Positions 392 through 1,602 of a stretch of 5,573 nt of DNA are shown here, piece by piece; positions within the stretch are counted from its first letter, which is position 1; each line of letters starts with the position of its first letter. Origin of the DNA: Escherichia coli (lineage in GTDB: Bacteria > Pseudomonadota > Gammaproteobacteria > Enterobacterales > Enterobacteriaceae); assembly GCF_003334765.1 (NCBI RefSeq), contig NZ_QOWT01000064.1; one strand, given 5' to 3'. A model generated the notes under the pieces. The model did no database searches. It saw only the letters and a list, made by a program, of their open reading frames with translations, and was not told the origin of the DNA. A program made the translations under genes and the position numbers.

Positions 392-1504
392 ATGAAATTT
401 GAACGCCATCATGAAATATTGAAACGACTCAGTAAATTCGGTTCTGTAAAAGTATCCGATCTGTCCAATAGCCTCAATGTAACGAAAGAAACTATTCGAT
501 CAGATCTTAATGAACTTGCCAGACTTGGCTATCTGACTCGATGTCATGGCGGTGCTTTTATCGTCCTAGACTCGCTTGATACTATTGCGAAAAATGAAAT
601 CGCTTATGCGCTTGAAAATTATGATACAGCCCAGGGAATAAAAAAAGGCCACTCAACTATGAAAAGTCAAGTATGCGTTATTGGTTCGTTTAATGTTGAT
701 ATCATCAGTTATTTGCCGAGGCTTCCCACTATCGGAGAATCGCTTCTGGCAAGTAATTTTATATTTTCACCGGGGGGAAAAGGTTGTAACCAGGCGCTGG
801 CAGCAAGCTTTGCCGATACTGATGTTTATTTCATAACAAAAGTAGGTACAGATCACTTTAGTGATTATGCGATCAACTTTATGAATTCGTCTAAGATTTA
901 TAAAAATATAATTTATCAAACGAAAGAAACGCAAACCGGAACTGCCACGATCCTTGTTAATGAAGGTACTGGCGATAATGTTATTGCGATCTATCCCGGT
1001 GCCAACATGACAATGTCGTCCGATGAAATAACTATTCAGAAAGAAGCGATTATTAATTCTGATGTCATACTTCTGCAGCTCGAAACAAATTATACCGCTC
1101 TGCAACAAGCGATCACATTGGCGCAAAAAAACAGTATCCCGGTCATTATTAACCCGGCACCCTATAATGATATCGTCAACGAACTTATTCAGGATGTTGA
1201 TTATATCACCCCCAATGAAACAGAAGCTGGTTTACTGTCCGGCATAGACGTACACGATCTTGAATCAGCTAAACGAGCTGCAGAAGCTATCCACAATAAA
1301 GGGGTAAAAAACACGGTTATCACGCTCGGTAGCAAGGGCTCACTCGCATTTGATGGCAAAAAATTCATTCGCCAGCGTTTCCAGCGGTCGTTAAAAATAC
1401 GGCAGGAGCCGGGGATGCGTTTAACGGCTCTCTGGCATCAGGACTTGCGAAAGGAAAATCACTGGAATCAGCACTGTGTTATGCCAGCGCCTTTGCATCC
1501 CTAG
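392..1504 (+). CDS. DeoR-type HTH domain fused to PfkB/ribokinase-family carbohydrate kinase (frameshifted; authentic C-terminus continues in another frame to 1602)
   Basis: ATG 392 with GAGG at 382-385. N-terminal ~55 aa (MKFERHHEILKRLSKFGSVKVSDLSNSLNVTKETIRSDLNELARLGYLTRCHGGA) fit the DeoR-family HTH pattern. From ~residue 93 (VCVIGSFNVDII...SPGGKGCNQALAA...NPAPY...ITPNETEAGLL...VITLGSKGSLAFDG) the sequence follows the ribokinase/PfkB fold, including the N-terminal signature GGKG.NQA. After the A6 run at 1358-1363 the frame no longer matches kinase consensus and ends at TAG 1502-1504. Confidence 0.85.
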   Translation: MKFERHHEILKRLSKFGSVKVSDLSNSLNVTKETIRSDLNELARLGYLTRCHGGAFIVLDSLDTIAKNEIAYALENYDTAQGIKKGHSTMKSQVCVIGSFNVDIISYLPRLPTIGESLLASNFIFSPGGKGCNQALAASFADTDVYFITKVGTDHFSDYAINFMNSSKIYKNIIYQTKETQTGTATILVNEGTGDNVIAIYPGANMTMSSDEITIQKEAIINSDVILLQLETNYTALQQAITLAQKNSIPVIINPAPYNDIVNELIQDVDYITPNETEAGLLSGIDVHDLESAKRAAEAIHNKGVKNTVITLGSKGSLAFDGKKFIRQRFQRSLKIRQEPGMRLTALWHQDLRKENHWNQHCVMPAPLHP

Positions 1505-1602
1505 CGGTGGAGACAAGCAATGCTTCCGACATGCCTGAACATGAATCTGTGATACATCGAATTCAGAGTATACATTATCAGCAAACTATTTTTACGCATT
1601 AA
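1372..1602 (+). other. Displaced C-terminal segment of the PfkB kinase (-1 frame relative to 392-1504) carrying the GAGD catalytic/anion-hole motif
   Basis: This frame translates PAFPAVVKNTAGAGDAFNGSLASGLAKGKSLESALCYASAFASLAVETSNASDMPEHESVIHRIQSIHYQQTIFTH*, matching the ribokinase C-terminal signature (E. coli RbsK ...AVDTIAAGDTFNGALI...). It is open only from 1354 (TGA 1351-1353) and ends at TAA 1600-1602, 13 nt before the next gene's ATG. One extra A in the A6 run at 1358-1363 would join both frames into a single ~403-codon ORF. Confidence 0.7.

Follow-up and report, generated by a model that had tools for sequence, protein, structure and literature searches.

Frameshifted rikA in an Escherichia coli genomic island, and a predicted role of its DeoR-ribokinase fusion product in operon control

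We analysed a 5,573-nucleotide stretch of Escherichia coli DNA (contig NZ_QOWT01000064.1, hereafter the window), in which the original prediction had placed a gene that joins a DNA-binding domain of the DeoR type to a ribokinase-fold kinase. The most likely explanation of the locus is that this gene corresponds, as its E. coli ortholog, to rikA (STM3547) of Salmonella, and that it leads a horizontally mobile cassette of four genes, where it is followed by a GATase1-like gene, a DMT transporter gene and a gene of a PTE-family hydrolase (Table 1). The window is E. coli chromosomal DNA: of 5426 complete E. coli genomes, about 1990 contain a match to its bases 280-1620, in many cases with 100% identity, and an identical E. 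coli chromosomal sequence in RefSeq carries at 392-1602 a feature labelled 'PfkB family carbohydrate kinase, frameshifted'. Intact alleles encode one polypeptide of 404 amino acids (WP_000667429.1), which newer RefSeq annotation calls 'ribokinase RikA'. The best overall explanation, to which we assign a probability of roughly 55%, is that the copy studied here is a pseudogene of rikA, while the intact alleles would encode a 'trigger enzyme', i.e., a kinase that controls its own operon.

Table 1. Features of the window (positions in nucleotides; HTH, helix-turn-helix; IS, insertion sequence; ORF, open reading frame)
Feature	Position	Strand	Basis or remark
IS66-family transposase remnant	1-196	+	upstream side of cassette
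Tandem pair of 10-bp direct repeats, TTTTTGATTT / TTTTTGCTTT; proposed RikA operator	298-317	+	inferred
CRP-like inverted repeat TATGG-TGATTA-TCACA	330-345	+	includes the originally predicted palindrome at 334-344
Shine-Dalgarno sequence GTGAGGTG for Met1 (ATG 392)	380-387	+	
DeoR-type winged HTH, codons 1-60	392-571	+	Pfam, NCBIfam, AlphaFold2
Variable linker, codons 61-89	572-658	+	probably disordered; contains A7 tract 640-646
Met90 codon, candidate internal start of kinase-only isoform	659-661	+	
Ribokinase (PfkB) domain, in-frame part, residues 90-326	659-1369	+	Pfam PfkB; RbsK 1GQT alignment
Frameshift site, 4-bp deletion, (ATTC)2 versus (ATTC)3 in intact allele	1363-1370	+	pairwise alignment with intact allele
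C-terminal kinase segment, residues 327-404 (78 residues, GAGD and catalytic Asp343 equivalent)	1366-1602	+	-1 frame only
Premature stop of frameshifted ORF	1502-1504	+	
GATase1_like	1616-2374	+	ORF list, RefSeq name
Hairpin GGGGTAAC-TCCA-GTTACTCC	2385-2404		between GATase1-like and transporter genes; -13 kcal/mol, z -3.5
DMT_YdcZ transporter	2431-3396	+	ORF list, RefSeq name
PTE-family hydrolase	3399-4433	+	ORF list, RefSeq name
Gamma-glutamyltransferase (ggt) 3' fragment, ~290 bp	4473-4765	-	alignment with Salmonella
ISL3-family transposase pseudogene with internal stop	4845-5573	-	downstream side of cassette

The interval 392-1602 had been read as a single polypeptide, and for the window this proved incorrect. 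Its length (1211 nt) is not a multiple of 3, and the open reading frame (ORF) that starts with the ATG at 392 is closed by a premature TAG after 370 amino acids, the final 44 of which are out of frame and nonsense-like. Direct translation one frame back recovers the canonical kinase C-terminus (...PAFPAVVKNTAGAGDAFNG...IFTH), which ends with the TAA at 1600-1602. At the point of the break, intact genomes have ATTCATTCATTC and the window has ATTCATTC; the deletion is a 4-bp slipped-strand loss of one ATTC unit. Native sequence thus stops at Ile326, and the PfkB C-terminal signature with its GAGD anion hole and catalytic Asp, which intact alleles carry in the same polypeptide, is lost. Because the frame shifts after residue 326 and the catalytic GAGD is removed, the window copy is a kinase-dead pseudogene. 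A mis-joined pair of ORFs separated by an unnoticed stop had been named with the original prediction as what could overturn it; a break is indeed present, but it stems from the 4-bp deletion in a gene that forms a single ORF in intact alleles, and it is a strain-specific mutation rather than a mis-joined gene pair. With a 76-nt probe across the site for the deletion allele and an 80-nt version for the intact one, we found the deletion in about 58 of about 1961 carrier E. coli genomes (~3%), the remainder being intact.

These results raise the question of whether the locus in the window is anything more than the decaying cargo of a degraded genomic island, with the truncated protein and the upstream element both idle. 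The gene is frameshifted and deprived of its catalytic motif, the cassette has an IS66 remnant, a ggt fragment and an ISL3 pseudogene at its flanks, and further independent disruptions of rikA occur in E. coli. On the other hand, all three downstream genes are unbroken and the upstream element is unchanged. The allele could still give rise to a 370-amino-acid product whose helix-turn-helix (HTH) is intact and which might bind DNA in a ligand-blind manner, and the restriction of the allele to so few carriers means that the loss is recent. We regard such decay as a real possibility for this particular copy, though not as a probable one.

In the intact allele, domain annotation bore out both halves of the predicted fusion. 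Pfam recognizes HTH_DeoR (PF08220) at residues 5-56 (E-value 4.9e-15), within the N-terminal ~60 residues expected to hold a DeoR-type HTH, and PfkB/ribokinase (PF00294) at residues 92-382 (E-value 5.3e-65). Among NCBIfam models, the best HTH match is of the AgaR type (residues 3-61), while the ribokinase equivalog TIGR02152 scores 285.4 bits and falls narrowly short of its cut-off of 299.65, as might be expected of a divergent subfamily. The DeoRC effector/oligomerisation domain (PF00455) gave no match, the C-terminal part being PfkB. Kinase positions invariant among 26 homologs are N101, D103, GGKG 128-131, N133, E231 and N275; N101, D103 and G128-G131 align with N14, D16 and G41-G44 of RbsK, and the match to RbsK extends over ribose, ATP and catalytic residues. 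Both the GG signature of the PfkB N-terminus (GGKG) and the N-x-D that binds ribose are also present and in frame in the window. An AlphaFold2 model (mean predicted local distance difference test score, pLDDT, of 85) contains a winged helix at residues 1-56 (pLDDT 75-91), a low-confidence linker and a confident kinase fold. We found no PDB chain with both HTH and PfkB, and a protein search with HTH and linker only returned fragments and split alleles but no informative DeoR relatives. A generic kinase-motif scan of contigs with the family alignment yielded mostly plain ribokinases, with fusions at 3 of 80 loci, and since it favoured plain ribokinases, orthologous loci were collected one by one.

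HTH_DeoR and PfkB are retained together in a single ORF of 397-412 amino acids over a range of identity from 100% to ~45%, in hosts of the Enterobacterales and Orbales that include Salmonella, Citrobacter, Klebsiella, Budvicia, Providencia, Hafnia, Pectobacterium, Rahnella, Brenneria, Pantoea, Tatumella, Gilliamella and Orbus. Fourteen residues of the HTH (R5, I9, V21, V30, E33, T34, R36, D38, L39, L42, R50, G53, G54 and A55) are invariant in the 26 homologs, which share 45-83% identity. Between E. coli, S. enterica and S. bongori, the proportion of non-synonymous differences in codons 1-60 (pN) is 0.11-0.13 and that of synonymous ones (pS) 0.49-0.66, giving a dN/dS of 0.08-0.18; in codons 31-60 the amino acid is changed in 2-3 codons and 12-17 differ only synonymously, a constraint equal to that of the catalytic core. 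The Shine-Dalgarno (SD) sequence of Met1 is conserved in 5/5 close orthologs, and most other relatives have a core of the GAGGT type. The energy of its duplex with the anti-SD is -9.2 kcal/mol for E. coli, and 11 of 14 sequences surpass -6.5 in strength; S. bongori uses a GTG start at the position of Met1. The single-ORF architecture, the invariant residues, the low dN/dS and the strong, conserved SD of Met1 together indicate that the HTH is a working part of the protein under purifying selection, with DNA binding as its predicted activity. By this comparison of sequences, the fusion of HTH and kinase is a genuine, selected architecture.

A separate observation concerns silent sites. Between E. 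coli and Salmonella, synonymous change is rarer in codons 1-89 (392-658) than in codons 90-404 (659-1602), affecting 36-37% vs 57% of the codons for the same amino acid (Fisher p 0.002-0.004), which hints at an additional nucleotide-level constraint or at a different history of the 5' part.

Sequences that the HTH could recognize were sought upstream. Alignment of this region from seven orthologs exposed two conserved blocks. The first, with the consensus TTTTTG-N-TTTTTTTTG-N-TTT, corresponds to the tandem 10-bp repeats; it is single in the window, where 0.01 would be expected by chance. The second (TATGR-N6-TCACA) is placed 15-16 nt after it and corresponds to the inverted repeat. Distant clades have the same layout and spacing with repeats of other sequence, namely TTCCGTTTAC twice in Pectobacterium, TTTTGTTTAC/TTTTGTTTAA in Acerihabitans and TTTTGTTTAC/TTCCGTTTTG in Rahnella. 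Repeats and CRP-like site together lie upstream of 14 out of 15 family members, and in the sole exception another gene precedes the fusion gene in the operon. When a stricter regular expression was applied, it hit 12 members and otherwise nothing on the coding strand of 2.25 Mb of fetched DNA, a set that includes ~80 plain-ribokinase loci; the two members that it missed have CATGA or AATGA as the left half-site.

The inverted repeat agrees with TGTGA-N6-TCACA at 8 of 10 positions, a quality of match of which 2.6 are expected by chance per window. Its half-sites TATGR and TCAC(A/T) are conserved across genera around a variable spacer, with G7 and C16 invariant, and two relatives have a perfect TGTGA half-site. 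It looks like a candidate class II CRP site, and the tandem repeats appear to be the better operator candidate for the HTH of RikA. The original prediction had singled out a palindrome, GTGATTATCAC, for binding assays, which is located within the inverted repeat; among the seven orthologs it is not conserved as a palindrome, and only ATCACA is invariant.

One could still argue that the HTH is functional and binds the inverted repeat with its GTGATTATCAC, while the T-rich repeats serve as an UP-like or curvature element or as the site of a host factor. The position of the inverted repeat is conserved in all clades, distant relatives have TGAT-N4-ATCA and Pectobacterium a symmetric TGAC-N4-GTCA, and some operators of the DeoR family, such as those of E. 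coli DeoR and GlpR, are palindromic. However, conserved half-sites around a free 6-bp spacer, with a perfect TGTGA half in two relatives, fit CRP. In Citrobacter and Budvicia the E. coli-type palindrome is lost although the recognition helices are nearly unchanged, and the repeats of Pectobacterium, Acerihabitans and Rahnella are sequence-specific 10-bp units, more than just T-rich. We thus consider an operator at the inverted repeat unlikely and keep the tandem repeats as the putative binding site of RikA.

A scan of positions 200-760 for sigma-70 promoters found no consensus promoter in 284-391, which fits an activator-dependent promoter, and none inside the HTH-coding region; the placement of a promoter upstream of rikA is accordingly a model. 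TATGGT was considered as a -10 element and judged unlikely, its final T being absent in 5 of 13 first-in-operon relatives and no -35 lying at a workable spacing. CytR was likewise dropped as a candidate binder of the tandem repeats, which apparently bear no likeness to its GTTGCATT octamers. AgaR, the best HTH match, reportedly recognizes T-rich half-sites of the TTTCRTTT type (Ray and Larson 2004), which the repeats would seem to resemble. An Rfam search of the window returned no known RNA family, hence no known riboswitch or leader RNA.

While the original prediction held the arrangement to be uncharacterised, STM3547 of Salmonella enterica serovar Typhimurium has been shown to be a ribose kinase and named RikA (McCormick, Jabbar and Escalante-Semerena, Mol Microbiol 2026; PMC13432705), the name that RefSeq uses. 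According to that study, STM3547 enables ribose growth of a strain without rbsK and deoK and phosphorylates ribose in vitro, for which D343 is required, and ATP binding is cooperative. The authors noted a PROSITE DeoR domain at residues 2-57 and left its role explicitly unresolved, no assay of DNA binding or regulation being part of the study. With native translation signals in Salmonella, only a C-terminally tagged protein of ~35 kDa was recovered, consistent with a start at Met90, and RikA 90-404 complements ribose growth; the authors concluded that more work was needed (PMC13432705). It is worth stressing that the 35 kDa protein was purified from clarified lysate only and that full-length His-tagged RikA was insoluble (PMC13432705), so that a 45 kDa form could have escaped detection.

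Our comparison provides further signs of an internal start. At the position of Met90, 23 of 26 aligned proteins have Met, and the codon there is start-compatible in 14/14 DNA sequences (ATG in 12, GTG in 2). In each of these, anti-SD pairing of the 17 nt before it surpasses that of 74-98% of the in-frame positions. The preceding linker (residues 61-90) is poorly conserved in the 26 homologs and modelled with a pLDDT <50. Shortening of its A7 tract to A6 leaves an HTH ORF of 89 amino acids and a kinase ORF of 315 amino acids that overlap in ATGA, where the TGA stop meets the ATG of Met90. This allele is present in at least 26 complete E. coli genomes (a lower bound), ST648 and CE10 included, and as a natural split it supports Met90 as a usable start. 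The conservation of the start, the A6 allele and the published 35 kDa product together make a kinase-only isoform plausible; alternatively, the 35 kDa species may come from proteolysis in the disordered linker. The A7 tract itself is a mutational hot spot, and Salmonella fragments also break there.

A more radical account, tentatively suggested in PMC13432705, is that the first 89 codons do not belong to the functional protein at all: the product would be a plain ribokinase from Met90, and the DeoR-like region an untranslated or vestigial leader. Besides the ~35 kDa product and the growth supported by RikA 90-404, it can draw on the alignment of Met90 with the start of stand-alone ribokinases and on the compatible codon and SD-like sequence in all 14 sequences. 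Yet a vestigial leader would not have stayed open and in frame over 45-100% identity with 14 invariant HTH residues, nor would it have a dN/dS as low as observed and codons 31-60 conserved like the catalytic core; moreover, the SD at Met1 is stronger than that at Met90 in most sequences, and the experiment covered soluble protein under one condition, so we find this account improbable.

The genetic context points to the possible ligand. The fusion gene, correctly predicted to come first in its cassette, leads the operon at 14 of the 15 loci examined, and the genes that flank it differ between genera. In Salmonella enterica, S. bongori, Citrobacter, Budvicia, Providencia and Orbus, the four-gene order is constant, with the same three downstream Pfam families, in otherwise unrelated neighbourhoods, and across these genera the cassette contains no regulator gene other than the fusion gene. 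Sister operons, in which the gene stands first or close to first, combine the fusion with a nucleoside hydrolase and nucleoside and MFS transporters (among them a Salmonella paralog and Gilliamella), with an ABC transporter and an ADP-ribosylglycohydrolase, or with a DHDPS-type aldolase, DUF386 and an MFS protein; at one locus it follows an adenylosuccinate-lyase-like gene and precedes DcuC, transketolase and transaldolase. Several of these partners liberate ribose from ribosyl compounds, in keeping with ribose as both the true substrate and the likely effector of the fusion. Selection on the fusion, its first place in the operon and the lack of another regulator in the cassette make one-component autoregulation by the rikA product plausible, and the idea of a combined regulator and enzyme is now better supported by comparison than when it was first put forward.

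On these grounds we propose the following mechanism for the intact gene, whose winged HTH (1-60) is joined by a flexible linker of ~30 residues to a complete ribokinase (90-404). Full-length RikA would dimerize via the kinase domain and place its two flexibly tethered HTHs on the tandem 10-bp repeats, which would directly precede a promoter dependent on CRP, and so control its own operon. Ribose, with or without ATP, would close the kinase lid and thereby alter the affinity for DNA; for RbsK, closure of the lid upon ribose binding is documented. Catabolite control would come in addition from CRP, and the in-frame start at Met90 may additionally give a free kinase isoform. RikA may repress or activate the operon; DNA binding, operator, effector, sign of regulation and the origin of the short isoform are all inferred.

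A more far-reaching version, which we offer tentatively and hold to be rather doubtful as a whole, sees rikA-type genes as trigger-enzyme genes with two products. The Met1 form, seated on the repeats beside the CRP site, would sense ribose through its active site, and the free Met90 kinase could also heterodimerise with it, thus tuning the number of HTHs per dimer. The module would have been reused as a ribose sensor at the head of several operons that import and cleave ribosyl compounds (with nucleoside hydrolase, ADP-ribosylglycohydrolase or the PTE cassette).

Several points weigh against control of the operon by RikA. The only product detected from native signals in Salmonella has a size that implies loss of the HTH (PMC13432705), and DNA binding is predicted from comparison. 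E. coli and Salmonella each harbour frameshift alleles, several of them independent, which suggests that selection on the gene is relaxed in these hosts. The upstream motif was derived from the sequences on which it is scored and hence demonstrates specificity rather than independent discovery, and its co-occurrence with the fusion would be compatible with either RikA or a host factor as the binder of the repeats. The region 284-391 offers no consensus sigma-70 promoter, as described above, and the SD of Met90 is weak in E. coli (-3.2 kcal/mol) and S. enterica (-3.4 kcal/mol).

If the proposal is true, RikA would be a clean enterobacterial case of an active sugar kinase that serves as the sensor-regulator of its own operon, and the substrate of the STM3548-3550 cassette would be suggested to be a ribose-releasing compound. 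The architecture and kinase function were already known and the protein was already named by RefSeq, so the finding in itself adds little. Its value lies in testable predictions on the DNA-binding half: the 20-bp repeat, the CRP-like site, the Met1 and Met90 starts, and the natural split and truncated alleles of E. coli.

Window positions 297-4756 are colinear with the Salmonella chromosome in a single 4.46-kb alignment of 75.9% nucleotide identity; homology starts at 297, spans all four genes and enters the ggt 3' fragment, and the island therefore keeps a piece of Salmonella-like chromosomal context. In Salmonella, a complete, convergent ggt directly follows the PTE gene. A minus-strand ORF of 68 amino acids (67-273), in or beside the IS66 remnant, is probably spurious. 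Upstream of the cassette, the island of the strain identical to the window also contains fragments of colibactin genes (a piece of clbP and a thioesterase), IS2 and ibrAB-like genes, whose place is taken in other strains by a cluster of the yaiP-yaiO type.

The hairpin between the GATase1-like and transporter genes has the form GGAGTAAC-N4/5-GTTACTCC in Salmonella and S. bongori, and Citrobacter, Budvicia and Providencia have seemingly different GC-rich hairpins at this junction, as judged by eye. Its role could be that of an intercistronic stabiliser or of a partial terminator, which matches the two-operon prediction cited for Salmonella. With NCBIfam, the PTE-family protein gave a weak match to the phosphotriesterase-related protein Php (108 bits) and one to phospho-furanose lactonase (42 bits) well under the cut-off, which faintly suggests a phosphorylated furanose lactone as something that the cassette might process. 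No NCBIfam model matched the GATase1-like and DMT proteins.

The closest known system is RikA STM3547 itself, with 80% identity over 100% coverage, the same 404 amino acids and the same layout of DeoR HTH, linker, Met90 and ribokinase. Homologs of STM3548-3550 follow in the same order, and the adjoining ggt is a fragment in E. coli. In contrast to the Salmonella gene, the window copy bears the 4-bp deletion and is unable to yield an active kinase, and in E. coli the cassette is located within an island with IS elements at its flanks, instead of at the Salmonella chromosomal site. The kinase of RikA also aligns end to end with RbsK (PDB 1GQT / 1RKD; E-value 6.6e-52 for 1GQT), with counterparts of N14/D16, GGKG, N46, E143, N187 and A253-G254-D255, but RbsK has no DNA-binding domain and is controlled by a separate LacI-type repressor, RbsR.

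With regulators of the DeoR family (AgaR, GlpR, DeoR and TagR), RikA shares the N-terminal HTH_DeoR, including the R-x-HGGA motif after the wing, whereas the place of their DeoRC sugar-phosphate sensor is taken in RikA by a catalytically competent kinase. For aga and tag, a CRP site beside the operators has been described (PMC12226905).

As a concept, the proposal resembles trigger enzymes with a DNA-binding domain (BirA, NadR and PutA), in which a metabolic enzyme (or enzyme fold) and an HTH form one polypeptide and occupancy by substrate sets operon expression. The ROK repressors NagC and Mlc are a sensor-only version of this enzyme-HTH concept. Their enzyme and HTH families are unrelated to those of RikA, for which DNA binding and ligand control are predicted.

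The likeness to YeiI, to which the original prediction pointed, is right as far as the architecture goes, since YeiI too has a winged HTH N-terminal to a PfkB kinase. In K-12, however, this is an HTH_24 domain (Lrp/AsnC-like, residues 1-48) joined by a linker of ~10 residues to PfkB (58-348). The kinase is of the pseudouridine-kinase type and only 22% identical to that of RikA, and the N-terminal domains fail to align. Because its HTH is HTH_24 and not DeoR and its kinase is so distant, YeiI is, on comparison, an independent fusion. It nevertheless keeps similar company: yeiI adjoins nupX (nucleoside transporter) and rihB (nucleoside hydrolase), the same types of partner that accompany the DeoR-PfkB fusion in the Salmonella paralog and in Gilliamella.

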